From contig DAOUEG010000048.1 in assembly GCA_034430495.1 (NCBI GenBank), positions 709-64,708 on the forward strand: a stretch of DNA of 64,000 nt. Direction: 5' to 3'. The notes under the pieces were generated by a model that saw nothing but the letters and a program-made list of their open reading frames with translations, searched no databases and was not told where the DNA came from. The translations under genes were made by a program, and so were the position numbers. Shown in pieces: positions 3,832 through 52,001 of this stretch; position 1 is the first letter of the stretch; each line of letters starts with the position of its first letter. Source of the DNA: Dehalococcoidales bacterium. GTDB taxonomy: Bacteria > Chloroflexota > Dehalococcoidia > Dehalococcoidales > RBG-16-60-22.

Positions 3832-3895
3832 ACCAAAAATATTGAGGGGAGCCCGGCGCGGCGGCCGAAGTTCCCCTCAATGTAGTGTAATTAAC

Positions 3896-29807: not shown

Positions 29808-31502
29808 ATGAAGCGACTGGAAGATCTCGGAACGGTTATCACCACGGACGTCCTCGTGCTCGGGGCCGGCGGGGCCGGCACCTGTGCCGCGCTCAAGGCC
29901 AGGCGACCGGGTGTGGACGTGCTGCTGCTCGATAAGGGCGGCGTGGGCTACTGCGGGCAGGTGCCCATCGGCGGGGGCATCCTCGCCTACGTCTACCCGG
30001 ACTACGCCGACCAGTGGGTGGAGAAGGTCACCCGCCAGAGCTTCTTCTTCAACAACCAGCACTGGACGGAGGTCTACGCCAGGTCCTTCCACCCGGTGAC
30101 GATGGAGCTGGCGGAGATGGGGCTGACCTTCCACCAGGAAAACGGGAAGATGAAGATACTGGACTGGGGGCCGCACGTCCACGTGACGCTCTTCGACGCC
30201 CCCAAGTCCCTGGCGGCGCTCAAGCAGACGGCCTTACAGCGCGGCGTGAAGACGATGGACAAAATCAACATCGTTGACCTGCTGACGCGGGACGGCCGCG
30301 TGGTGGGCGCGGTGGGCCTCGGGCTGGTGGATGGCAAGACTTACCTGTTCAACGCCAAGGCCACCATCATCGCCATGGGCAACTGCGGCTATATGCACGA
30401 GAAGACCTATGCCTCCTGCCTCGGCGACGGCGCCGCGGCCGGCTACCGGGCCGGGGCGGAGCTCGTCAACGCGGAGTTCGGCTCCAGCTACGTGTGGGGC
30501 ACCAAGGTGCTCGGCAAGGAGCTCTTCGGCATCCACTTCTACCTCTACCTGGAGAACGCCAGGGGCGAGAAGATCATGGGCAAGCACTTCCCGGACCTCA
30601 TGGAGCACGTCCAGCCGGTCTACACCTTCGACCCGCGCGTCATTGACGCCATGCAGAAGGAGGTCCAGGCGGGCCTGGGGCCCATCTACCTCAACCTGCG
30701 CGGGCTGAGCGACGCCCAGATAGCCGACTGCGCCGAGGACGTGGTCGAAGACTTGAGCCACCTGATGGCGAACGATAACCTGATGCTCCTGCGGGAGAAG
30801 GCCGGCATCGAGCCGAAGGAGGCGCTCATCGAGATGGGCCCGAAGCTCCTCTACAGCGGCGGCGGCATGCGGACGGACACGACCGGCCGGACGACGCTGG
30901 CAGGGCTGTGGGCGGCCGGGGCCGCCTCGTCCAACGGCTGGTCCAACGGCGGGGGCGGCCAGGGAGGTCTCGGGGTGGCCTCGGCGGCCATCACCGGGTT
31001 CGTGGCCGGGGAAAACGCCGGGGCGTACGCGGCGGGGGCCGGGCTGATGGGTATTGACGCGGCGGCCGCGGAAAAGGTCTTGAGCCGGGTGCTGGCCCCG
31101 ATGAAACGGAAAGGCGATACCGACCCGTCCAGGGTCACCTACCGCGTCCACGACGCCGTCGTGCCGATGAAGTACACCCGCCAGCGGGAGGCCGGCCGGA
31201 TGAAGGAGGCGCTCGGCATCGTCAGGGAAGCGCGGGAGATGCTGGCGCGGGTGGGCGTGAGCAACTACCACGACCTGGCCCGCTACCACCAGGCGGCGAG
31301 CATGGCGCTGGCGGCGGAGGGTACCTTCAACGCGGCGCTGCTGCGGGAGGAGAGCCGGGCCGGCCACTTCCGCGAGGACTTCCCAGAGCGGGACGACGCC
31401 AACTGGTTCAAGTGGATAACCGTCCGCGAGCAGGGCGGCGCGCCGAAGCTGGACACCCTGCGGATACCGGTGGAGACGTACCGCCTCCGGCCGGAAAGCT
31501 AA
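29808..31502 (+). CDS. FAD-dependent oxidoreductase of the fumarate reductase / succinate dehydrogenase / AprA flavoprotein superfamily
   Basis: DVLVLGAGGAGTCAA FAD fold, and C-terminal ESRAGHFREDFPERDD typical of this superfamily. The real start is ATG 29808 with an AGGAG SD. The upstream part of the track ORF overlaps the ferredoxin gene in another frame. Confidence 0.75.
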   Translation: MKRLEDLGTVITTDVLVLGAGGAGTCAALKARRPGVDVLLLDKGGVGYCGQVPIGGGILAYVYPDYADQWVEKVTRQSFFFNNQHWTEVYARSFHPVTMELAEMGLTFHQENGKMKILDWGPHVHVTLFDAPKSLAALKQTALQRGVKTMDKINIVDLLTRDGRVVGAVGLGLVDGKTYLFNAKATIIAMGNCGYMHEKTYASCLGDGAAAGYRAGAELVNAEFGSSYVWGTKVLGKELFGIHFYLYLENARGEKIMGKHFPDLMEHVQPVYTFDPRVIDAMQKEVQAGLGPIYLNLRGLSDAQIADCAEDVVEDLSHLMANDNLMLLREKAGIEPKEALIEMGPKLLYSGGGMRTDTTGRTTLAGLWAAGAASSNGWSNGGGGQGGLGVASAAITGFVAGENAGAYAAGAGLMGIDAAAAEKVLSRVLAPMKRKGDTDPSRVTYRVHDAVVPMKYTRQREAGRMKEALGIVREAREMLARVGVSNYHDLARYHQAASMALAAEGTFNAALLREESRAGHFREDFPERDDANWFKWITVREQGGAPKLDTLRIPVETYRLRPES

Positions 31503-32038
31503 CCGGCGGCCAGCTTCCTGCCGAGGCGTTCCAGCCGCCGCTTGAGGGCTGGCTGGCGGGAGGCATCTTTCGGGAGCTTGGCGAGGGCGGTGACCCCGCC
31601 GCGCCACGTCATGCCGAGCAAGTCCCCGTAGGTCCGCAGGTTCCGTAACGCCGCCATGAGGCTCTCTTCCGCGACGGCGAGACCGGCCAGTCCCTTGCCG
31701 CGCAGGGCCGGCCAGACGGGGCAGGTGCGGTCGAGGAAGGTCTTGAGCTGGCCGGACAGCAGCCCCATGTAGCCGGGCGTGGCCAGCACGATGACATCGG
31801 CGGCGAGCAGCCGGGGAAGGATGTCCTGCATGTCATCGTCAATGACGCAGGCGCCGCGCCCGTTTTTATCCCGCTTCTCGCAGGCCAGGCAGCCGCGGCA
31901 GGGTTCGATGGTCCGCTCCCTCACCAGCACCCGGTCGGTCACGGTGCCGGCGGCGGTCGCAGCCGCCAGCAGCGTGGACAGCATCCACTCCGTGTTGCCC
32001 TTCCGGGGCGAGCCGCAGATACCCAGAATGTTCATCAT
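31499..32038 (-). CDS. Flavodoxin-like / iron-sulfur flavoprotein (Isf)-like NADPH-dependent FMN reductase family protein
   Basis: MMNILGICGSPRKGNT, and the compact Cys motif CRGCLACEK...C. Its 3' end overlaps the convergent FAD oxidoreductase stop by 3-4 nt. The start is uncertain (ATG 32038 vs GTG 32065). Confidence 0.7.
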   Translation of the reverse strand: MMNILGICGSPRKGNTEWMLSTLLAAATAAGTVTDRVLVRERTIEPCRGCLACEKRDKNGRGACVIDDDMQDILPRLLAADVIVLATPGYMGLLSGQLKTFLDRTCPVWPALRGKGLAGLAVAEESLMAALRNLRTYGDLLGMTWRGGVTALAKLPKDASRQPALKRRLERLGRKLAAG

Positions 32039-40632: not shown

Positions 40633-41232
40633 TCATTTCAGGCCCAGCTTTTCGTTGCGGGCCAGCAGGCTCACGGCTTCCTGCGAGCGCCGGACGCGCG
40701 TTTCGCTGCGCCTGGCGCTGGCTATCCAGGCGATGTACTGCTTCCGGTGGGAGGGCGCCAGCTTCTCGAAATTTTCGCGGGCGGCTGTGTCGGCGGCGAG
40801 GGCGGCTTCGAACTCCGGGGGCATCTCCCACGGCTGCCGACTTTCCGGCACCCTGTCCCAGCTGCCGTTTTGCTTCGCCTCGTCAATGATGCGCCGGCCG
40901 GCCTCCGTCATACGGCCTTCCTGGAGCAGCTTCTCGACGCGGCGCTTGTTGTCCGCCGACCAGACCGCCGTGGCGGTGCGGGGGGTGAATTTCCGGGCGT
41001 AGCGCTCGCCGTCGAGGTTCTTGATGAGGCTGTCAATCCACCCGAAGCAGAGGGCTTCCTCCACCGAGTCCTCGTAGGGGATGCTCGGTGTGCCGGTCGC
41101 CTTCTTGAAGAAGACGAGCCAGACTTCTCTGGCGGCGGCGTGGTGCTCCCTGAGCCACGAACGCCAGTCGTCCCGGTCTGTCACGTACAGCTGATTGTCA
41201 GACGGCACGCTAAACCTTCTGGCAGCCGTCAC
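40633..41232 (-). CDS. YdeI/OmpD-associated family protein (DUF1801-related)
   Basis: WRSWLREHHAAAREVWLVFFKK...SIPYEDSVEEALCFGWIDS...RKQYIAWI pattern. The longest ORF overlaps the upstream gene by 23 nt. Confidence 0.65.
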   Translation of the reverse strand: MTAARRFSVPSDNQLYVTDRDDWRSWLREHHAAAREVWLVFFKKATGTPSIPYEDSVEEALCFGWIDSLIKNLDGERYARKFTPRTATAVWSADNKRRVEKLLQEGRMTEAGRRIIDEAKQNGSWDRVPESRQPWEMPPEFEAALAADTAARENFEKLAPSHRKQYIAWIASARRSETRVRRSQEAVSLLARNEKLGLK

Positions 41233-42037
41233 AAAAATAGACGCTGCCTCCCATATAGGCCTGTTTGATAATGGTGCCCCCGCACACCGGGCAGGGTTTT
41301 TGGGCGGTCGCCTGGCTCAGCTTGGTGACGTACCCCCCTGGCCGGCCGAGCAGGTCCCGCGTGGTATCCCGGCCGCCCTGCTCCGCCATCTCTCTGAGCG
41401 TGGCTTTCACGGAGCGGAAAAGGGCGTCCTTCTCGCCGCCGGTAAGATTTTCGACCTTTTGCCTGGGGTGAATTCTGGCGTTGTAGAGGATATCCTGCGA
41501 GACCCCGTTTCCCAGCCCGGGGATGCGCTGCCCGGTGGCCAGCAAGGCCTTGAGGCTCAGCTTCTGGACCTCGGGGGCGGCGATGAGGCGGTCGAAGTAG
41601 TCCTGGTCGAACTCGTCCGATAGCGGCGACGGCTTGCCGACGGCGGCCTCGTAGTAGGGGTTACTGAAGTCGCCTTCCCTGAAGCACCACAGGCCGCCGT
41701 ACATCTGGACGGAGGCGCTGACGGCGGTACCGTCCTCGAACTCGATCAGGAGCTGGTGCCTGGCGGGGCGCCGCTCGTCCCTGGCATGAAACCTGAGCAC
41801 GACGCCGTCGGTAAACAGGAGCACGGCGTCACCGGCCCTGATTTCCACCATGCCGCCGCGGGCGACGGCCGGGCCGACCGTCTGGCCGCGCAGCAGGGCA
41901 TCATACCCTTTCGGGTCGCCGTGGTACCAGGCAAACTTGTGAGGGGAAAGACCGGCGATAACCCGGGCCACGGTCTTGCCGCCAACGGTCTGGTTGAGTT
42001 GCCTCGAGAGAAATTCCGCTTCCGGTAGTTCAATCAT
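41210..42037 (-). CDS. Fpg/Nei-family DNA glycosylase homolog with an atypical N-terminus (MIELPE)
   Basis: The N-terminus MIELPEAEFLSRQL compares with canonical MPELPEVE. An H2TH region (LLATGQRIPGLGNGVSQDILYNARIHP) and a C-terminal zinc finger (CPVCGG...CDGCQ) are present. Confidence 0.8.
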   Translation of the reverse strand: MIELPEAEFLSRQLNQTVGGKTVARVIAGLSPHKFAWYHGDPKGYDALLRGQTVGPAVARGGMVEIRAGDAVLLFTDGVVLRFHARDERRPARHQLLIEFEDGTAVSASVQMYGGLWCFREGDFSNPYYEAAVGKPSPLSDEFDQDYFDRLIAAPEVQKLSLKALLATGQRIPGLGNGVSQDILYNARIHPRQKVENLTGGEKDALFRSVKATLREMAEQGGRDTTRDLLGRPGGYVTKLSQATAQKPCPVCGGTIIKQAYMGGSVYFCDGCQKV

Positions 42038-42235
42038 CGGCCGCGTCCCACCAGTGAGGTAGAGTATCCTGCCTGATTATAGATGATGCCGATTGAAAGT
42101 CAAGATAAGGTTTATTGGAGAAGGAAGTGGAGCTGGGGGGATCCGCCGGTCAAATTGACAGATACCGGTGGAAAAGCTACACTCCCTTCAAAGCTGTGCT
42201 GCAAACAGCACGCGCCGGTAAGGGGGGACACTGTC

Positions 42236-42856
42236 ATGGATGTTTCGGACGCCATTCTGAAGAGGGCAAGTATCCGGAGAATCAAGCCGGACCCGGTGGA
42301 AAGGGCCAAGATCGAAAAGGTGCTGGAGGCAGGCCGGCGGGCGCCGTCATGGGGGAACACGCAGCCGTGGCGCTTCATCGTCGTTCAGGACAAGGCGAGG
42401 AGAGAAGAGATAGCCGCGGCCGGGGGCATGCCTCAGATCAGCGGCGCGCCGGTGATTATCGTCTGCTGTGCCACCATTGACGACTTCACCAAGAAGGGGC
42501 ACGGCGCGGCGCTGGAGAGCCTCATTCCCGCGGGAGCGATGACGGAGGAGCTTAAAAATTTCGTCCTGCAGAGCGACCAGTTCGCGCCGTACCTGAAGGG
42601 AGAGGCGGTGATGACCGTCCGGGCCGGCGAGCAGCTTATGATAGCCGTCGCCTACATGACGCTGGAAGCGGTCAACCAGGGCCTCGGTACCTGCTGGGTG
42701 GGGGCGATAACCCCGGCCGGCGTCCACAAGGCCATGAACCTGCCGGATACTATCTTCGTCCACTCCTTGCTGCCCCTGGGGTATCCCGACGAGGACCCCA
42801 AGCCCCGGCCGAGAAAAGCCATGGACAAAATCGTTTTCTGGGAGAACTACGGGTAA
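42236..42856 (+). CDS. Nitroreductase-family protein
   Basis: ILKRASIRRIKPDPVERAKIEKVLEAGRRAPSWGNTQPWRFIVV. Start is ATG 42236. Confidence 0.8.
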   Translation: MDVSDAILKRASIRRIKPDPVERAKIEKVLEAGRRAPSWGNTQPWRFIVVQDKARREEIAAAGGMPQISGAPVIIVCCATIDDFTKKGHGAALESLIPAGAMTEELKNFVLQSDQFAPYLKGEAVMTVRAGEQLMIAVAYMTLEAVNQGLGTCWVGAITPAGVHKAMNLPDTIFVHSLLPLGYPDEDPKPRPRKAMDKIVFWENYG

Positions 42857-42884
42857 AAGCGTCTGTTTCCAAGGGTGGTGAACA

Positions 42885-42969
42885 TGGAGCCGGGGGTATT
42901 CGAACCCCCTGCCTCCGGGGTGGACCCATCACCCGATCCCACTTCTGGGTCACCATATACCGTGGCTCC
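42885..42969 (-). pseudogene. Degenerate tRNA-like element (tRNA-Ala-derived 3' half, aberrant core, no CCA)
   Basis: Its 3' 32 nt, GGAGGCAGGGGGTTCGAATACCCCCGGCTCCA, match 30/32 with the variable-loop, T-arm and acceptor strand of tRNA-Ala (43419-43494). Its 5' end GGAGCC can pair with the 3' strand. No canonical D or anticodon arm could be folded by hand, and the conserved G53:C61 pair is broken. Confidence 0.5.
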
Positions 42970-42990
42970 CCTGCGACGTCGTGAAGACCT

Positions 42991-43368
42991 CTAGAAATGA
43001 GGGTCTTCCAGGTCCTCGAAATCCTGTGCGTCTATTTCCCAAAGGTACTCATTCAAATCGACTTCATAGCCGTCCGAGACCTTGACACCTTCTTGTTCCA
43101 GGAGCCATTTTTGGTGTTCTTTGCCATCAACGGACGGCAACGAAAGCGTCCCCTTTGAATTTATGACGCGGTGCCACGGCAAGTCATACTTTTCAGACAT
43201 GGAATGCAGGGTCCGCGAAACCTGTCTTGCAGCTCTCGGGGCCCCCGCCCACCGGGCGATCAGCCCATAGGTAAGAACTTTACCCTTGGGGATATTTTTG
43301 ATTATCCGGAGGGTATCTCTCGTGAAATTGGTGATGTCGTCGTCCATTGGTTCGGCCTGGCTCGGCAC
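42991..43368 (-). CDS. Alkyltransferase-like protein (ATL; MGMT-family DNA-binding domain lacking the acceptor Cys)
   Basis: VLTYGLIARWAGAPRAARQVSRTL...DLPWHRVINSKG: the active-site PCHRV is replaced by PWHRV, as in ATL proteins (E. coli YbaZ, S. pombe Atl1; recalled). Confidence 0.8.
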   Translation of the reverse strand: MPSQAEPMDDDITNFTRDTLRIIKNIPKGKVLTYGLIARWAGAPRAARQVSRTLHSMSEKYDLPWHRVINSKGTLSLPSVDGKEHQKWLLEQEGVKVSDGYEVDLNEYLWEIDAQDFEDLEDPHF

Positions 43369-43418
43369 CAGTGGTTTATCTCCAAAAGTGGTTCCAGCCT
43401 TTACGACTTTTCAGGTGG

Positions 43419-43494
43419 TGGTGGAGCCGGGGGGATTCGAACCCCCTACCTCCTGCTTGCAAAGCAGGCGTTCTCCCGAGTGAACTACGGCCCC
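43419..43494 (-). tRNA. tRNA-Ala (anticodon UGC), CCA encoded
   Basis: GGGGCCG-TA-GTTC-ACTCGGGA-GAAC-G-CCTGC-TTTGCAA-GCAGG-AGGTA-GGGGG-TTCGAAT-CCCCC-CGGCTCC-A-CCA. This is a full cloverleaf with the G3:U70 alanine identity pair and a TGC anticodon. Confidence 0.95.
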
Positions 43495-43602
43495 GCGCTG
43501 TCAGGATTATAGCATACCGGCCCGGCGCCGGGCACGCTGCCGCCGATTGTCAGCTACCGGCATTGTTGCTATACTGGAACTGTTGTTTTTCAGGGCCGAC
43601 CG

Positions 43603-45057
43603 ATGAACTACGAGACCGTTATCGGGCTGGAAGTCCACGCCCAGCTCCTCACGCACAGCAAGATGTTCTGCGGCTGCTCGGCGGACTATGCCAGCACGCC
43701 GCCGGATACCCACGTCTGTCCCGTCTGCCTGGGGATGCCGGGGGTGCTGCCGGTCATCAACCGGCAGGCGGTTGAGTACACCATGATGACGGCGCTGGCC
43801 CTCCACTGCACGGTGCCGGAGTACACCAAGTTCGACCGCAAGAACTACCACTACCCGGACCTCATGAAGGCGTACCAGATATCCCAGTACGACGAACCCA
43901 TCGGCCTGGGGGGCTGGCTGGAGATAGAGGCGGAGGGCGTGCGGCAGCGTATCCGCGTGACGCGGGTGCACCTCGAGGAAGACACCGCCAAGCTCTCCCA
44001 CCGGAGCGGCCTCGGCGGGGACTTCTCCCTGGTGGACGTCAACCGGGCGGGCTGCCCGCTCATGGAAATCGTCGGGGAGCCGGACCTGCGCTCGCCGGAG
44101 GAAGCCCGCCAGTACCTTATCAAGCTCCGCAGCATCTTGCAGTACCTCGGCGTGTCCACCGGCAACATGGAGGAGGGCAGCTTCCGCTGCGATGCCAACA
44201 TCAGCGTGCGGCCGGAGGGGAGCACCGAGCTCGGCGTGAAGGTCGAAATCAAGAACATGAACAGCTTCCGGGCCGTGTTCCTGGCCATGGAGTACGAGGC
44301 CACCCGGCAGCGCAAGGCCCTCGCCGAGGGCAAGCCCATCGTGCAGGAGACGCGCGGCTGGGTGGAGGCCAGCGGCAAGACGGTCTCTCAGCGCACCAAG
44401 GAGTACGCCCACGACTACCGCTACTTCCCGGAGCCGGACCTGCCGCCGATGATCATCTCCCGCGAGTGGGTCGCGGCGGTCAAGGCGCGGCTGCCGGAGC
44501 TCGCCGAGGCGCGCCGCGACCGGTTCATGGAGGGGTTCGGGCTGCCCCGCTACGATGCCGAGCAGCTCACCGTCAGCAAAGCCCTGGCGGACTACTTCGA
44601 GGCGGCGGCCGGTGCCGGCGCGGACGTCACGCCCAAGGACGTCAGCAACTGGCTGCTCGGGGAGGTGAGCCGTATCCTCAACGCCAACCAGGCGGACATC
44701 GAGGCGTTCGGGGAAAAGGTCGCGCCCGCGCGGCTGGCGGAGCTTATCGCGGCCTCCCGCGGCACCATCAACGCCGCCACGGCCAAGTCCGTCCTCGAGG
44801 AGATGTATCAGAGCGGCCAGAGCGCCGGGGACATCATCGCGGCGCGGGGCCTGAGCCAGATCAGCGACACGGCGGAGCTTGAGAAAATAGCCGCCGAAGT
44901 GATAAACTTGAATGTGCAGCCCGTGGCGGACTATCGGGCCGGGAAGGAACAGGCCCTCAAATTCCTCGTCGGGCAGGTCATGAAGGCGACCAAGGGGCGG
45001 GCCAATCCCCAGGTCGTCAACGACGTTCTCAAGCGGAAGCTGGATGAGGCCGGGTAG
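43603..45057 (+). CDS. gatB: Asp-tRNA(Asn)/Glu-tRNA(Gln) amidotransferase subunit B
   Basis: MNYETVIGLEVHAQLLTHSKMFCGC...VCPVCLGMPGVLPV...YHYPDL... is a canonical GatB. Confidence 0.95.
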   Translation: MNYETVIGLEVHAQLLTHSKMFCGCSADYASTPPDTHVCPVCLGMPGVLPVINRQAVEYTMMTALALHCTVPEYTKFDRKNYHYPDLMKAYQISQYDEPIGLGGWLEIEAEGVRQRIRVTRVHLEEDTAKLSHRSGLGGDFSLVDVNRAGCPLMEIVGEPDLRSPEEARQYLIKLRSILQYLGVSTGNMEEGSFRCDANISVRPEGSTELGVKVEIKNMNSFRAVFLAMEYEATRQRKALAEGKPIVQETRGWVEASGKTVSQRTKEYAHDYRYFPEPDLPPMIISREWVAAVKARLPELAEARRDRFMEGFGLPRYDAEQLTVSKALADYFEAAAGAGADVTPKDVSNWLLGEVSRILNANQADIEAFGEKVAPARLAELIAASRGTINAATAKSVLEEMYQSGQSAGDIIAARGLSQISDTAELEKIAAEVINLNVQPVADYRAGKEQALKFLVGQVMKATKGRANPQVVNDVLKRKLDEAG

Positions 45058-48488: not shown

Positions 48489-48961
48489 GAGCGCTCCTCG
48501 ATGACGGCCACGGCCAGCGCGGCGATGCCCTCCCCCGCGCCGAGACTGCCGAGGGTGTTATTGGTGCTGGCCTTGACGCTGACGGACTCTACGTCAATCT
48601 CCAGCGCGGCGGCGAGGTTGGCCCGCATGACGTCAATATACTCCCGCAGCCTGGGGCGCTCGGCGACGACGGTGACGTCCACGTTGGCCGGTGCGTAGCC
48701 CTTCTCGTCCAGCAGGTCCGCGACCCGTTCCAGCAGCACGAGCGAGGAAATCCCTTTCAAAGATTCGTCGCCGGGAGGGAAGTGAAGGCCGATGTCCCCG
48801 AGCGCGGCGGCGCCGAGCAGGGCGTCCATGACGGCGTGGGTGAGGACGTCGGCATCGCTCCAGCCGTCGAGGCCCTTCTCGAAGGGAACGGTAACCCCGC
48901 CCAGCACGAGCTTCCGGTCCGCCACGAGCGGGTGGATATCGTAGCCGATGCCGGCCCTCAT
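48485..48961 (-). CDS. ispF: 2-C-methyl-D-erythritol 2,4-cyclodiphosphate synthase
   Basis: MRAGIGYDIHPL...GWSDADVLTHAVMDALLGAAALGDIG. Confidence 0.9.
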   Translation of the reverse strand: MRAGIGYDIHPLVADRKLVLGGVTVPFEKGLDGWSDADVLTHAVMDALLGAAALGDIGLHFPPGDESLKGISSLVLLERVADLLDEKGYAPANVDVTVVAERPRLREYIDVMRANLAAALEIDVESVSVKASTNNTLGSLGAGEGIAALAVAVIEERS

Positions 48962-49650
48962 GAGAACTCGCCCCGCTGGCGGAGGATGTTGTGCGCCACG
49001 GTCAGGTCGTCCGGGGTGGTAATCTTGATGTTATCGTAGGCGCCCAGGTAGAGCTTGACCTTGTGGCCGAGCCGCTCCACGAGGGAGGCGTCGTCGGTGG
49101 CTTCCTCGGCGTCCTGGAGGTGGGCTATCTGGATGACATCGAACCGGAAGACCTGCGGTGTCTGGACGGCCCAGAGGTTCTGGCGGGAGAGCGTTTCCAC
49201 CACGGTGAGGTCTTCGTCCGCCCGCTTGATGGTGTCCGTGACGGGCACGGCGGCCACGGCGGCGCCGGTCTCACGGGCGGCCTCCAGGCCGCGCTTGATG
49301 ATAGCCGCGGTGACGAGGGGACGAGCGCCGTCATGGATCATGACGTAGTCGAACCGGTTGAGGCGCTTGAGGCCCTCGGCGACGGAGTCCTGGCGGCGCG
49401 GGCCGCCGATGCAGATGTGGGTGACCTTGGACCAGGCCTCCCCGCCGATGAGATGGCGGCACATCTCTTCCTTCTCCCCGGCGATGACGATGACGATCTG
49501 GCTGATGGCGTCCGATTCCTGGAAGGGCCGGGTGGCGCGGAGCAAAATGGGCTCGGCGCCGAGGGGGGAGAGCACCTTATCAACGCCGCCCATGCGGAGG
49601 CCCTGCCCGGCGGCGACGATGACGGCGGCGACGATTGGTTTGGTGGTCAT
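48958..49650 (-). CDS. ispD: 2-C-methyl-D-erythritol 4-phosphate cytidylyltransferase
   Basis: AVIVAAGQGLRMG...DKVL, VMIHDGARPLV and VPVTDTIK. Confidence 0.9.
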   Translation of the reverse strand: MTTKPIVAAVIVAAGQGLRMGGVDKVLSPLGAEPILLRATRPFQESDAISQIVIVIAGEKEEMCRHLIGGEAWSKVTHICIGGPRRQDSVAEGLKRLNRFDYVMIHDGARPLVTAAIIKRGLEAARETGAAVAAVPVTDTIKRADEDLTVVETLSRQNLWAVQTPQVFRFDVIQIAHLQDAEEATDDASLVERLGHKVKLYLGAYDNIKITTPDDLTVAHNILRQRGEFS

Positions 49651-49692: not shown

Positions 49693-50589
49693 TTAGTTTT
49701 TGTTTGCATTGCTAGTTTTATAACTGGTACCTCGCATTTTCAATATCTGAGTAAGATATGGGTCCTTGATTTTGCTTTGGAGGCTTTTAAATTCAGCTCT
49801 AATTTGGCGTAGAGCTAATTTCCCTCCGCCTTCTTTCTTGATGAAGGGATATAACGTGAGCAATTTATATAACATTAAGAATACGAGCTTCCGAAAATAG
49901 CCTGACCACTCAATTAGCCCGTCTTCACTAAATTCAACTTCGGCAAAACAACCAGGTATTTCATCGTTACCATCGATTATTTTCCTTCCCATGGGAGTGT
50001 GAAGGATTGTATGAACAAACTGTGATAATTCGTTAAACAACGATTTCCATTCTTTAGTTTCTGTTTTGGTGTTTATCTCTGCCTTTTCAATAATATCTAG
50101 CAAATAGGATTCCTGTTTACGAAACCCTCCCTTGACCCAGGACTTGAAATTATGCTGGTTAGTCGTTGCGTCGTCATTACACTTATTGAATTTATAATGC
50201 TCCGCCGAAAAATATAGCCCATAGAGGAAATTTTCTAAGATGCACCTTTGTAACAATATTGCTTGCCTATAGTGTCCGCACATTGCCAAGAAAAAACTAG
50301 TCTTTAGGTCGCGCATTATTTCGTTACAAATTATCGTGAGATACTCATTTTCTGAAAGATTGAAATAGGCGGTTCCTATTACAAAGCAGGCGCATTGTAG
50401 CAATCGCCCATTTGAACATACGTGTTCTGCCAACCCTTTCTTCGTAATGAAGCTGTGACTTAGTAGTTGATATGTATAAAGCTCTCCTCCGGCAAATTCA
50501 TTGTCGTCCCTTAAGTGTCGAAAGAGATCAATGCAATTGGTTACTTGGCAATGTGCGCAAGTATCCCGCAAGTCAGTTTTTTGCTTCAT
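49693..50589 (-). CDS. Low-GC orphan protein of unknown function (298 aa)
   Basis: Long intact ORF in a segment with roughly 33-40% GC (hand count of sample stretches), against ~65% in the flanks. Its ATG overlaps the radA TGA (ATGA at 50586-50589). It has an N-terminal CAHCQVTNC motif. No confident family assignment. Confidence 0.7.
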   Translation of the reverse strand: MKQKTDLRDTCAHCQVTNCIDLFRHLRDDNEFAGGELYTYQLLSHSFITKKGLAEHVCSNGRLLQCACFVIGTAYFNLSENEYLTIICNEIMRDLKTSFFLAMCGHYRQAILLQRCILENFLYGLYFSAEHYKFNKCNDDATTNQHNFKSWVKGGFRKQESYLLDIIEKAEINTKTETKEWKSLFNELSQFVHTILHTPMGRKIIDGNDEIPGCFAEVEFSEDGLIEWSGYFRKLVFLMLYKLLTLYPFIKKEGGGKLALRQIRAEFKSLQSKIKDPYLTQILKMRGTSYKTSNANKN

Positions 50590-52001
50590 CCTTGCCCCTC
50601 CTCTTCAAATAGCGGGCTTAAATCCGGCGTCTCGTCGCCCTTTTCCACGAGGGCGGCATTGACCGCCTCGCGGAGGGTAGCGGCCTTTACCAATCGGATG
50701 CCGTCCGGGGCGGCGTACCTGGGGCCGTTCTTCGGCACGATGCAGGCGGTGAAGCCGAGCCGGGCCGCCTCCTGCAGGCGGCGCTCCATCTGGGCGGCGG
50801 CGCGGAGCTCCCCGCTCAGCCCCACCTCGCCGATGGCGGCGGTGTGGGCGGCGACCTCTTTATCACGGAAGCTGGAGGCGATGGCCAGGGCCGTGCCGAG
50901 GTCGGCGGCGGGCTCGCCCACCTTGAGGCCGCCGGTGACGTTGACGAGGATGTCCTGGTTGCCGAGTTTTGTCCCCACCCGCTTGGTGAGGACGGCGGTA
51001 ATGAGCAGCAGGCGGTTGTAGTCCACGCCGTTGGCGGTGCGGCGGGGCATGCCGAAGGCGGTCGTGGTGGTGAGGGCCTGTATTTCTACGAGTAACGGGC
51101 GGGAGCCCTCGATGGTGGGAACGACGGCGGAGCCGACGGCGGCGGCGCCGCGCTGGGAGAGGAAGGCCTTGGAGGGATTGGCGACCTCCTCGAGGCCCTT
51201 TTCCTTCATCTCGAAGACGCCTATCTCATTGGTCGAGCCGAAGCGGTTCTTGACGCAGCGGAGCAAACGGTAGGCGGAGAACGGCTCTCCTTCCAGGTAG
51301 AGCACCACGTCCACGATGTGCTCCAGCACGCGCGGCCCGGCGATGGCGCCCTCCTTGGTGACGTGGCCGGTGATGAAGACCGAGACGGCCTGCCGCTTGG
51401 CCCACTGCATGAGGCGCATGGTGCACTCCCGCACCTGGGTGATGCTGCCGGGGACGGACTCCACGGAGGGGAGGTAGACGGTCTGGATGGAGTCCACGAC
51501 GAGCAGGGAGGGGGCCATCTGCTCCACGTGCTCCAGGACGGCCTCCAGGTCCGTCTCCGCCATGATGAAGAGGCCCTTGCCGCCGAGGCCGAGGCGCTCC
51601 GCCCTTAGTTTGATCTGGTGGGCGGTCTCCTCACCGGTGACGTAGACGACGGATTTTTGCGATGAAGCAAGCGAAGCTGAAGCCTGCAGCAGCAACGTGG
51701 ACTTGCCGATGCCGGGGTCGCCGGAGATGAGGGTGAGCGAGCCGGCCACGAGGCCGCCGCCGAGGACGCGGTCGAACTCCCCGATGGCGAGCGGGAAGCG
51801 GTCGGCGGTCTCGATGGAGACCTCGGAGAGCTCCTGCGGCGGTGATATGGGCATGACGGGGCGGGCGGGCGCGGCCATCGCGGAGGCCCTGATTTCTACC
51901 ATGGTGTTCCACTGTCCGCAGTCCGAGCAGCGGCCGAGCCACTTGGAAGACTCCTTGCCGCACTCCTGGCACACGTAGACGATTTTATCCGCCTTGCTCA
52001 C
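50586..52001 (-). CDS. radA: DNA repair protein RadA/Sms
   Basis: Zinc finger YVCQECGKESSKWLGRCSDCGQWN, Walker A GDPGIGKST, the KNRFG motif, and a Lon-like C-terminal domain. Confidence 0.95.
   Translation of the reverse strand: MSKADKIVYVCQECGKESSKWLGRCSDCGQWNTMVEIRASAMAAPARPVMPISPPQELSEVSIETADRFPLAIGEFDRVLGGGLVAGSLTLISGDPGIGKSTLLLQASASLASSQKSVVYVTGEETAHQIKLRAERLGLGGKGLFIMAETDLEAVLEHVEQMAPSLLVVDSIQTVYLPSVESVPGSITQVRECTMRLMQWAKRQAVSVFITGHVTKEGAIAGPRVLEHIVDVVLYLEGEPFSAYRLLRCVKNRFGSTNEIGVFEMKEKGLEEVANPSKAFLSQRGAAAVGSAVVPTIEGSRPLLVEIQALTTTTAFGMPRRTANGVDYNRLLLITAVLTKRVGTKLGNQDILVNVTGGLKVGEPAADLGTALAIASSFRDKEVAAHTAAIGEVGLSGELRAAAQMERRLQEAARLGFTACIVPKNGPRYAAPDGIRLVKAATLREAVNAALVEKGDETPDLSPLFEEEGQG

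Follow-up and report, generated by a model that had tools for sequence, protein, structure and literature searches.

DNA inserted by tRNA-targeting integrases ends up between the intact tRNA gene and a direct copy of the 3' part of that tRNA. In Dehalococcoides, tRNA-Ala is an island recombination site at which up to four repeated 3' fragments have been described (PMC2764846). The islands of high-plasticity region 1 (HPR1; McMurdie et al. 2009, PMC2764846) measure anywhere between kilobases and tens of kilobases; their genes include rdhA, phage-type genes and recombinases, and their hosts are cultivated. At the Dehalococcoides ssrA gene, tandem islands are bounded by 3'-end repeats (McMurdie et al. 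2011, PMC3146451); some of the segments are without integration genes, the proposal for these being that they are either passengers flanked by att sites or remnants that have become fixed. In the tycheposon islands of Prochlorococcus (Hackl et al., bioRxiv 10.1101/2020.12.28.424599), repeated insertion at a single tRNA displaces the older elements towards the interior, and the island is strewn with degenerate remnants and additional partial tRNAs.

We analysed a 64,000-nt stretch of DNA (the window) from an uncultured marine-sediment member of the Dehalococcoidales, in which a tRNA-Ala(UGC) gene is followed, in this order, by an alkyltransferase-like (ATL) gene, a 32-nt copy of the tRNA 3' part (30/32 match), a nitroreductase-family gene and a 19-nt copy (17/19). 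The locus is an ordinary further case of the tRNA-gene insertion footprint already described in this bacterial group, and the DNA downstream of the tRNA is probably a site-specific integration hotspot where two or more integration events have left decayed remains. With HPR1 it shares the class and the kind of target gene; in both, the repeats (about 25 bp in Dehalococcoides, 19-32 nt here) lie downstream of the gene and adjoin compositionally atypical genes, which in Dehalococcoides are strain-variable. In contrast to HPR1, the window has one gene per interval, no recombinase between the repeats and an uncultured host. The ssrA islands likewise form arrays of segments parted by 3' direct repeats of a tRNA-like gene, but their target is the tmRNA and a serine integrase, DsiB, lies adjacent to attL, neither of which is seen here. 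Tycheposons resemble the window in that partial tRNAs separate the elements, whereas they belong to another phylum and element family, and their defining features, a tyrosine recombinase and replication modules, are all missing here.

Results

The tRNA-Ala(UGC) gene at 43419-43494 (minus strand), reported in the initial annotation of this DNA, was called by ARAGORN and by the Rfam tRNA model (RF00005, 68.3 bits); it has an encoded CCA and is functional. This gene is the integration target and the tRNA-proximal boundary. Divergent from it lies a housekeeping flank, gatB (43603-45057, plus strand; Pfam GatB_N and GatB_Yqey), whose adjacency to tRNA-Ala is preserved in the relatives L097-L099. 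GatB of the window is 93-97% identical to that of the closest related loci, L185 and L186, and 73-76% identical to that of the closest GTDB species representatives, while the tRNA-Ala genes of the window and L185 are 100% identical. An extended -10 promoter-like box, TGcTATAAT, was read from the sequence at 43506-43514 (minus strand), 11 nt upstream of the tRNA 5' end, and is conserved in the alignment with L185/L186. This box is the probable promoter of tRNA-Ala and, by read-through, of ATL, which would now be transcribed from the tRNA promoter; a consensus scan of the tRNA-ATL interval gave no separate promoter-like or terminator-like site. The spacer that separates tRNA-Ala from the ATL start codon (43348-43418, minus strand) has a GC content of about 46-50% and is homologous to L185/L186 over its first ~35 nt; the equivalent spacer of L185 measures 29 nt and that of L175 13 nt.

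The ATL gene (42991-43347, minus strand) is called as a 118-aa gene in public assemblies (P0001). Pfam DNA_binding_1 (PF01035) matched residues 14-95 of the 125-aa ORF with an E-value of 9.5e-24, and the closest solved structures in the PDB were S. pombe Atl1 (3GVA) and Vibrio vpAtl (2KIF), with E-values of about 1.5e-19. The protein has the hallmarks of the ATL family, namely an MGMT-type DNA-binding domain alone, with Trp replacing the active-site Cys (PWHRV), and thus the earlier statement that the interval between the tRNA and the first repeat holds a single gene, ATL, is borne out by the Pfam match and the closest PDB relatives. Atl1, vpAtl and E. coli YbaZ likewise consist of a single ~110-aa DNA_binding_1 domain with Trp in place of the alkyl-acceptor Cys; this likeness, seen at the sequence level, concerns the cargo gene only and is silent on the repeat architecture.

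The lowered GC content of ATL, previously counted by hand on one sample, was confirmed by measurement, at 51-52% (51% for the 118-aa gene) against 64.4% for the window (same-length windows, sd 5.1; ATL at the 2.3rd percentile). GC3 agreed, with 0.61 for ATL and 0.82-0.93 for 14 neighbouring genes. The gene is also low in GC3 in relatives, with 0.70 vs 0.83-0.94 in L185/L186 and 0.59 vs 0.80 in L176. Judged by its composition, ATL is foreign, a predicted horizontally acquired cargo gene. ATL relatives of 70-74% identity occupy unrelated, tRNA-free surroundings. ATL and tRNA genes are not linked in general, as only one of ~80 metagenome loci carrying ATL relatives of 50-68% identity had an adjacent tRNA; this single locus, L069, has tRNA-Ala GGC and is compatible with chance.

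We considered a recent private insertion of ATL and rejected it, as the gene occupies the same place in a relative whose GatB is 93-97% identical. Nor was there support for allelic replacement of ATL between the window and L185/L186, since dS is not significantly higher for ATL (0.57) than for gatB (0.38; about 70-80 synonymous sites each), and the contrast lies instead in dN (ATL 0.15 vs gatB 0.013). Given the presence of ATL at this site in the sister lineage too, and a dS that does not significantly exceed the gatB value, the ATL event must be an old one.

Downstream of ATL, an att-type direct repeat (repeat 2; 42885-42916, minus strand) matches positions 42-73 of tRNA-Ala at 30 of 32 nt. 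It comprises the variable loop, T-arm, 3' acceptor strand and discriminator, lies on the same strand as the tRNA, and is weakly extended to 42921 by nhmmer. A search with its 22-nt core, allowing up to three mismatches, found two sites only in 64 kb, the tRNA and repeat 2, where shuffles predict none. Since its position, orientation and extent (it starts where the anticodon stem ends and reaches the discriminator base) fit a direct repeat of this kind, repeat 2 can be read as an att scar. In the variable loop it has C for T, as does a 48-nt tRNA-Ala fragment in L175, and T is present in six of the six real tRNA-Ala(UGC) genes examined (window, L185, L186, L097, L098 and L099).

The initial annotation had correctly noted this 30/32 match in direct orientation, as the last 32 nt of an 85-nt tRNA-like element at 42885-42969, but only the ~32-33-nt 3' part of that element proved to be tRNA-derived. 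The remainder (42917-42969, minus strand) contains a GGAGCC hexamer and a 9-bp bulged hairpin, gave no tRNA call, is not conserved in L175, L176 or L185, and may be an element arm or mere spacer. The proposed check with a tRNA finder was made, and ARAGORN called no tRNA in 42885-42969; Rfam at E<=10 gave no tRNA match there, only a tmRNA fragment (7.4 bits, E = 1.9). The reported change of the identity pair G3:U70 to A3:U70 falls away, because it depends on the GGAGCC hexamer, which occurs at chance level (in 4.9% of 74-nt spacer shuffles). For the same reason a 5' acceptor strand was rejected as proof of a full tRNA copy, and the GGAGCC-bearing 5' part was rejected as an acceptor since it aligns with the ATL 3' flanks of relatives, which do not pair. 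A stretch of ATL 3' flank common to related ATL loci lies at 42970-42990 (minus strand), where ~20-25 nt past the stop can be aligned with L175 and L176. Two further details did stand: the G53:C61 pair is broken, A61 being present, and the core is not tRNA-like, with C8 for U8, no D-stem pairing and a middle 50 nt that cannot be aligned with tRNA.

It had also been suggested that the ATL transcript carries, in the 85-nt element, a functional tRNA-like structure at its 3' end; such a structure could act as an RNase P/Z processing site, a stabiliser or a terminator substitute. The element begins 21 nt past the ATL stop, between convergent genes, and a consensus scan found no canonical terminator; its MFE fold has a 6-bp acceptor-like stem closing a T-arm-like hairpin together with a 9-bp hairpin, and the element has 0 SNPs across five same-species contigs that are 98-99.8% identical overall. 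Set against this, the fold is no better than that of shuffles (z = -1.2), its closing hexamer is the chance-level one, U8, the D-arm and G53:C61 are missing, and neither an ARAGORN call nor a match at E<=10 to an Rfam tRNA or tRNA-like family was obtained. Covariance models of known tRNA-like cis-RNAs (viral TLS, mascRNA, the tRNA-like domain of tmRNA) did not match either. The structure is not conserved at related ATL loci, and same-clade ATL relatives, which show none after the gene, therefore offer no material for a covariation test. A functional RNA is thus scarcely credible, and we infer that the supposed pseudo-tRNA is an att scar joined to an unrelated flank, and not a tRNA or a designed RNA structure.

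A further att-type direct repeat, additional to those in the initial annotation, was found in the intergenic region between the nitroreductase and Fpg genes (repeat 3, CGGATCCCCCCAGCTCCAC; 42127-42145, minus strand), a decayed copy of tRNA-Ala positions 56-74 with a 17/19 match. The 19-nt pattern with up to three mismatches occurs at three sites in 64 kb, which share the minus strand and span no more than 1.4 kb, against 0.07 expected; the score of repeat 3 was equalled in 1 of 300 shuffles of 1.9 kb and in none of 300 shuffles of the intergenic stretch. It has a GGATCC variant in common with the tRNA copy downstream of ATL in L175. Between repeats 2 and 3 lies the nitroreductase-family gene (42236-42856, plus strand; 206 aa, Pfam PF00881, called as a gene in L001/L003), which is convergent with ATL and absent downstream of ATL in L185, L186, L176, L175 and L187. 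Its composition is near-native, so that an atypical composition is found for ATL and not clearly for the nitroreductase (GC3 0.82). The earlier view of this gene as a simple native far flank has to be given up, as it is itself bracketed by the older third copy. The first gene beyond the last recognisable repeat encodes an Fpg/Nei-like DNA glycosylase (41210-42037, minus strand; Pfam H2TH and Fapy_DNA_glyco, GC3 0.83), for which NCBIfam fpg matches were below cut-off. The arrangement has two marks of a tRNA-targeted integrated element, an intact tRNA at one boundary and direct 3' repeats beyond chance at the other.

The copies could instead have arisen by recombinase-independent local duplication or gene conversion, for example as a decayed tandem tRNA duplicate, with ATL arriving separately. 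That repeat 2 still matches the tRNA so closely (30/32), although ATL appears to be old at the site, fits conversion by the tRNA 500 nt away, and L098, which has tRNA fragments of its own (29 nt copied from the 5' part and 12 nt from the 3' part), has duplicated the tRNA 5' half, which integration into the 3' half does not predict. However, what the window repeats is the 3' part only, present in three direct copies as would be expected from integration, and the similarity on the 5' side is at chance level; the intervening DNA is compositionally foreign, L175 shows 3' fragments in the same pattern amid other neighbouring DNA, and repeat 2 differs from the resident tRNA precisely where it agrees with the L175 fragment. 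We therefore regard duplication as quite improbable.

Comparison of relatives showed that L185/L186 and the window have gatB, tRNA, spacer and ATL in common, with divergence beginning just past the ATL stop, where L185 has a different next gene. Between L185 and L186, ATL and spacer are identical over about 507 nt, while the two loci differ in the tRNA T-stem and by 7 SNPs over 316 nt of gatB. L187 has the same ATL as L185 and different DNA from 32 nt past the stop. In L176/L177, a low-GC HAD hydrolase gene lies between the tRNA end and ATL, with no tRNA-derived site between the two genes in L176. Downstream of ATL in L185, L187 and L176 no repeat rose above shuffle level. In L175, only the 3' 48 nt of tRNA-Ala (47/48) lie upstream of ATL, behind a segment of 41% GC, and ATL is followed by a significant decayed tRNA-Ala copy (17/19, 0/300 shuffles), in surroundings unrelated to the window. 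In L098 (GatB 73%) tRNA-Ala adjoins gatB and ATL is not present. The contigs of several relatives end at the tRNA, as is mostly the case among GatB relatives of 73-76% identity. Thus the content downstream of tRNA-Ala differs among L185/L186, L187, L176, L175 and L098, ATL itself being present in the closest relative. No locus was found at which the nitroreductase gene directly adjoins tRNA-Ala, as it would in an empty site, and an exact-protein look-up of the nitroreductase matched the same genome only.

These comparisons bear on the possibility that the att-ATL-att unit is a small integrase-less cassette, comparable to a cis-mobilizable element or an integron cassette and moved by a tRNA-Ala-specific recombinase encoded elsewhere, with single-gene cassettes accumulating behind the tRNA promoter. 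The ATL interval of the window and that of L175 fit the anatomy of a cis-mobilizable element, in having an att site at either end and lacking mobility genes; these are two unrelated settings in which tRNA-Ala 3' sequences bracket the gene, and the nitroreductase makes a second interval with one gene. The identity of ATL and spacer between L185 and L186 despite their differing gatB and tRNA T-stem, the variable-loop C common to repeat 2 and the L175 fragment and not found in real tRNAs, and the integrase-less att-flanked units proposed for Dehalococcoides ssrA islands (PMC3146451) point the same way. In contrast, the bracketed instances number only two, with unequal spacer lengths at both ends; L185, L176 and L187 have no downstream site and HAD hydrolase and ATL in L176 no intervening one; L175 is equally explained by an island in the tRNA that displaced its 3' part next to a resident ATL, whose GC3 (0.79) matches that of its right flank (0.77); and no recombinase was found in the regions scanned. 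Such a cassette is unlikely. That single genes in general (ATL, the nitroreductase and the HAD hydrolase of the relative) were collected behind tRNA-Ala as minimal integrase-less cassettes, each with a tRNA-Ala 3'-end site as its boundary, moved in trans by an unlinked recombinase specific for tRNA-Ala and expressed from the tRNA promoter, is very unlikely; if true, the tRNA gene would serve as the base of a gene-capture platform resembling an integron. The locus is not an integron itself, since no integrase was found nearby and its sites derive from the tRNA 3' end and do not have the form of attC-like imperfect inverted repeats.

The intervals between the repeats hold ATL and the nitroreductase and no gene for an integrase or recombinase, and Pfam searches of large ORFs at 31.5-43 kb and small ORFs at 39.5-40.6 kb gave nothing recombinase-like; three ORFs of the scanned region, including a 457-aa ORF at 30234-31607, had no Pfam match of any kind. 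As no recombinase lies inside it, the structure is only a remnant or passenger and not an autonomous element. A search for a donor phage or element in viral contigs matched neither the exact att pattern nor the ATL protein, and tblastn against phages and plasmids returned only relatives of <=50% identity.

Discussion

The initial annotation had read this locus as the footprint of a tRNA-targeted integrative element. The att-like repeat, the foreign ATL gene and the variability of the site uphold that view, while a recent single insertion and a simple nitroreductase flank do not stand. We consider decayed integration scars the probable explanation because three same-strand tRNA 3' copies lie within 1.4 kb and none elsewhere in 64 kb, because ATL is compositionally foreign and the site downstream of the tRNA varies among relatives, because ATL relatives at 70-74% identity occupy unrelated, tRNA-free contexts, and because there is published precedent at tRNA-Ala in Dehalococcoides (PMC2764846). 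Against it stand the lack of an integrase or recombinase between the repeats, of an empty site, of a circular form and of an intact donor, the one-gene intervals of 0.45 and 0.75 kb, which are unusually small for island remnants, and the lack of a significant repeat after ATL in L185, L176 and L187.

On the integration reading, the recombinase genes and most of the original elements would have been lost, leaving one gene per interval. Two orders of events are possible: two successive insertions into the tRNA may have taken place, that of ATL last, or the nitroreductase segment may have been inserted later, into an older scar behind ATL. Repeat 2 is 94% identical to the tRNA, which is above the neutral-decay prediction for an old ATL, and a later event or gene conversion is thus required.

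For annotation, the supposed pseudo-tRNA should be labelled as an att-type tRNA 3' fragment, and ATL, possibly also the nitroreductase, should be flagged as accessory. A new mechanism would be at issue only if the one-gene intervals turned out to be cassettes under active mobilisation. The locus offers a small, clear example of tRNA-Ala as a gene-acquisition site in an uncultured marine-sediment member of the Dehalococcoidales, which extends the picture drawn from cultivated Dehalococcoides, and it suggests that ATL, a DNA-damage-sensing gene, travels as accessory DNA in the Dehalococcoidales.

Copies of the tRNA-Ala 3' part beside an ATL gene

The locus lies in a GC-rich Dehalococcoidales genome (GC of the window, 64.4%) and recurs, at 99.8% identity, in MAG GCA_964462855.1 and on several contigs from JGI sediment metagenomes; judged by GatB, its nearest species representatives are MAGs of Dehalococcoidaceae and Dehalococcoidales (73-76% identity). 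tRNA-Ala(UGC), recognised by ARAGORN and by Rfam (68.3 bits), occupies 43419-43494 on the minus strand. A 71-nt spacer separates it from a 118-aa gene (42991-43347, minus strand) and gatB (43603-45057, plus strand) diverges from its other side. Downstream of the 118-aa gene, on the same strand, follow a 21-nt flank and a stretch (42885-42969) termed an 85-nt tRNA-like element in the initial annotation. A nitroreductase-family gene (42236-42856, plus strand) converges toward this stretch, with an Fpg/Nei-like gene (41210-42037, minus strand) beyond it. The DNA directly behind the tRNA (41210-43347) forms a damage/detoxification accessory run of ATL, nitroreductase, Fpg/Nei-like glycosylase and a YdeI/OmdA-domain protein, the glycosylase scoring under NCBIfam equivalog cut-offs.

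The 118-aa product carries one Pfam domain only, DNA_binding_1 (E 9.5e-24), its PWHRV motif places Trp at the acceptor-Cys position of alkyltransferases, and the nearest solved structures are those of S. pombe Atl1 and a Vibrio ATL (E about 1.5e-19). These features identify it as a predicted alkyltransferase-like (ATL) protein, as had been read from the motif. Its reduced GC, previously estimated by hand, proved more pronounced than could be seen then, at 51-52% (2.3rd percentile among equal-length windows) with a third-position GC of 0.61 versus 0.82-0.93 in 14 neighbouring genes. The tRNA has an extended -10 promoter-like box (43506-43514), conserved in two related contigs, L185 and L186, and a scan of the tRNA-ATL interval, just 13-29 nt long in relatives, gave no promoter-like or terminator-like site; the ATL is probably transcribed by read-through from the tRNA promoter. 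Among the matches listed outside a small Chloroflexota cluster, the nearest ATLs (59-67% identity) came for the most part from Asgard archaea (Promethearchaeota/Lokiarchaeota and Hodarchaeota MAGs) of similar sediments, a hint that the gene family has been exchanged between domains.

The direct copy of the tRNA 3' part that had been noted downstream of the ATL was confirmed. The tRNA segment 42-73, which takes in variable loop, T-arm, 3' acceptor strand and discriminator, recurs on the same strand at 42885-42916 (copy 2) with 30 of 32 nt matching. When no more than three mismatches were allowed, a 22-nt core matched only the tRNA and copy 2 in 64 kb, where shuffles predicted none. A further copy, CGGATCCCCCCAGCTCCAC (copy 3), lies on the tRNA's strand at 42127-42145, between the nitroreductase and Fpg genes, and matches tRNA positions 56-74 at 17 of 19. 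Its score was reached by 1 of 300 shuffles of the 1.9-kb downstream region and by none of the nitroreductase/Fpg intergenic stretch. Allowing three mismatches at most, a 19-nt pattern has exactly three matches in the window, all of them minus-strand sites inside a 1.4-kb span (0.07 expected). Behind the tRNA, the ATL is thus followed by copy 2 (94%), the nitroreductase gene, copy 3 (89%, across a shorter stretch) and Fpg, so that the nitroreductase gene too is bracketed by tRNA 3' copies. Less probably, the copies arose by duplication or gene conversion independently of a recombinase; 3'-only, same-orientation copies around foreign DNA are not predicted by that explanation.

Elsewhere in the window, a 298-aa ORF (49693-50589, minus strand) of 38.5% GC and GC3 0.41, in a 64%-GC genome, is flanked by a radA-like gene (50586-52001) and ispD (48958-49650), with a sharp composition drop at both gene borders. 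It had no match in Pfam or NCBIfam and looks like a single-gene foreign insertion.

The 85-nt stretch contains only a tRNA fragment

Neither ARAGORN nor Rfam, even at E<=10, recognised a tRNA at 42885-42969, the stretch folded no better than shuffled sequence (z = -1.2), and its middle 50 nt did not align to the tRNA. A change of the identity pair G3:U70 to A3:U70 had been deduced from a GGAGCC hexamer pairing with the 3' end. When the 74-nt spacer was shuffled, this hexamer came up in 4.9% of cases, and the stretch bearing it aligns to the ATL 3' flank of related loci, in which the pairing is absent. These results do not support an 85-nt pseudo-tRNA or the A3:U70 change; the tRNA-derived part is therefore a 3' fragment of about 33 nt only. 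The same Rfam, fold, shuffle and relatives' alignment results give no positive support to the alternative that the stretch is a functional tRNA-like RNA, proposed earlier as a 3' structure on the ATL transcript.

Related loci differ in the DNA behind the tRNA

ATL homologues of 76-82% identity were found on short marine-sediment contigs. In L185 and L186, GatB is 93-97% identical to that of the window and tRNA-Ala 100% and 95% identical, and a homologous spacer and ATL occupy the same position, the ATL protein being only 76% identical. Similarity to the window ends directly after the ATL stop codon, where a different gene follows. Between the window and these contigs dS was 0.57 for ATL and 0.38 for gatB, a difference that is not significant with about 70-80 synonymous sites each, while dN was 0.15 and 0.013, respectively. 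The common ancestor therefore probably carried the ATL at this site already, and the gene evolves under weaker constraint. Its GC3 is low in L185/L186 too (0.70 versus 0.83-0.94). In the comparison with relatives suggested in the initial annotation, the contents behind the tRNA vary and the ATL is shared, low GC3 included.

Across about 507 nt, from the tRNA 3' end through the spacer and ATL to its flank, L185 (1244-1815) does not differ from L186, yet their tRNA T-stems differ by two compensatory pair changes (GGGGG/CCCCC versus ACGGG/CCCGT) and their gatB genes by 7 SNPs in 316 nt, which suggests that the ATL segment or the tRNA was recently exchanged between strains. The gatB frame of L185 (324-1136) seems broken (called as 269 aa without a Pfam match; tblastn matches in two frames), probably by an assembly error or a frameshift. 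A further contig, L187, carries the same ATL as L185, but a comparison of L187 453-576 with L185 1738-1990 shows completely different DNA starting 32 nt past the stop; the 3' end of the ATL thus has breakpoints of a second class. L176 and L177 begin within the tRNA-Ala 3' end and continue with a low-GC HAD hydrolase gene, an ATL (82%) and then the downstream gene of L185. In shuffle comparisons, no significant tRNA copy was found past the ATL in L185, L187 or L176.

In contig L175, only the 3' 48 nt of tRNA-Ala (anticodon stem to CCA, 47/48) lie 13 nt upstream of the ATL (80% identical), the 5' half being absent there. Upstream of the fragment come a hairpin resembling a terminator and a segment of 41% GC that encodes a DUF4279 protein, and a decayed copy, GTTCGGATCCCCCCGCCTC, follows the ATL (17/19; score reached by 0 of 300 shuffles). 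That the ATL is bracketed in two unrelated surroundings, and identical in L185 and L186 with differing flanks, would suggest a minimal cassette mobilised in trans. For L175, however, insertion of an island into the tRNA, upstream of an ATL already resident, is an equally good explanation; in that contig the ATL resembles its right flank in composition.

ATL relatives of 70-74% identity stand in unrelated contexts without tRNA. In an unrelated low-GC organism (L069, 171-579), an ATL gene (58% identical) begins 27 nt downstream of a tRNA-Ala(GGC) and has a normal terminator after it, but no tRNA fragment; the shared tRNA amino acid is curious, but one case in about 80 loci is compatible with chance.

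In more distant GatB relatives (L097-L099) tRNA-Ala still adjoins gatB, and several contigs among the GatB relatives stop at the tRNA, as expected for a strain-variable site. L098, a 1.47-Mb contig, is without ATL but has scars of its own. An exact 12-nt copy of the tRNA-Ala 3' end (1343-1354) lies in an intergenic gap 2.4 kb downstream. Ahead of the gatB-adjacent tRNA-Ala (3840-3895 and 1343-1354 being the two sites noted), the 5' 29 nt of this tRNA recur exactly, joined to an unrelated tRNA-like remainder, unlike what 3'-end integration predicts.

A probable integration hotspot with decayed scars

The simplest account of these sequences is a tRNA-Ala integration hotspot with decayed scars. 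Site-specific integration into the tRNA 3' part leaves the inserted DNA between a restored tRNA and a direct 3'-part copy, and repeated integrations build arrays of such copies. Three same-strand 3' copies, foreign-composition DNA beside the tRNA and differing contents at the same point in relatives show this pattern. The junctions would have been made by a recombinase, although a scan of large ORFs at 31.5-43 kb revealed none, and the original elements were presumably larger and since reduced. The initial observation is for the most part correct, and the earlier proposal of a tRNA-targeted integrative element reduced to the ATL was right in kind, with three amendments: the 85-nt element is not a pseudo-tRNA but a tRNA fragment, the ATL was inserted long ago and is shared with relatives, and tRNA copies enclose the nitroreductase gene too.

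In the classical order, both segments would have entered the tRNA itself, that with the nitroreductase before that with the ATL. The stronger decay of copy 3 relative to copy 2 agrees with this, as does the ATL composition, more foreign than that of the nitroreductase gene. Two shared variants favour a different order and would fit an ancestral tRNA-ATL-scar arrangement, with the nitroreductase segment later inserted into the scar, which would also account for a copy 2 fresher than the apparent age of the ATL at the site. A GGATCC variant is common to copy 3 and the copy directly after the ATL in L175, and a variable-loop C to copy 2 and the L175 48-nt fragment, the position being T in all real tRNA-Ala genes examined; each shared variant is one position and is given little weight.

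This account has matching published parallels in the same bacterial class. Dehalococcoides has a high-plasticity region bounded by tRNA-Ala genes (PMC2764846) and, at ssrA, tandem islands set apart by 20-bp 3'-end repeats, some without integration genes and discussed as cis-mobilizable or fixed remnants (PMC3146451). Tycheposon islands, with partial tRNAs between tandem and degenerate elements (bioRxiv 10.1101/2020.12.28.424599), follow the same logic. The locus is a further instance of a phenomenon already described in this bacterial group. A reading in which single-gene cassettes are actively captured by a tRNA gene is not favoured by present evidence; if true, it would be the sole reading to raise the otherwise modest interest of the locus.
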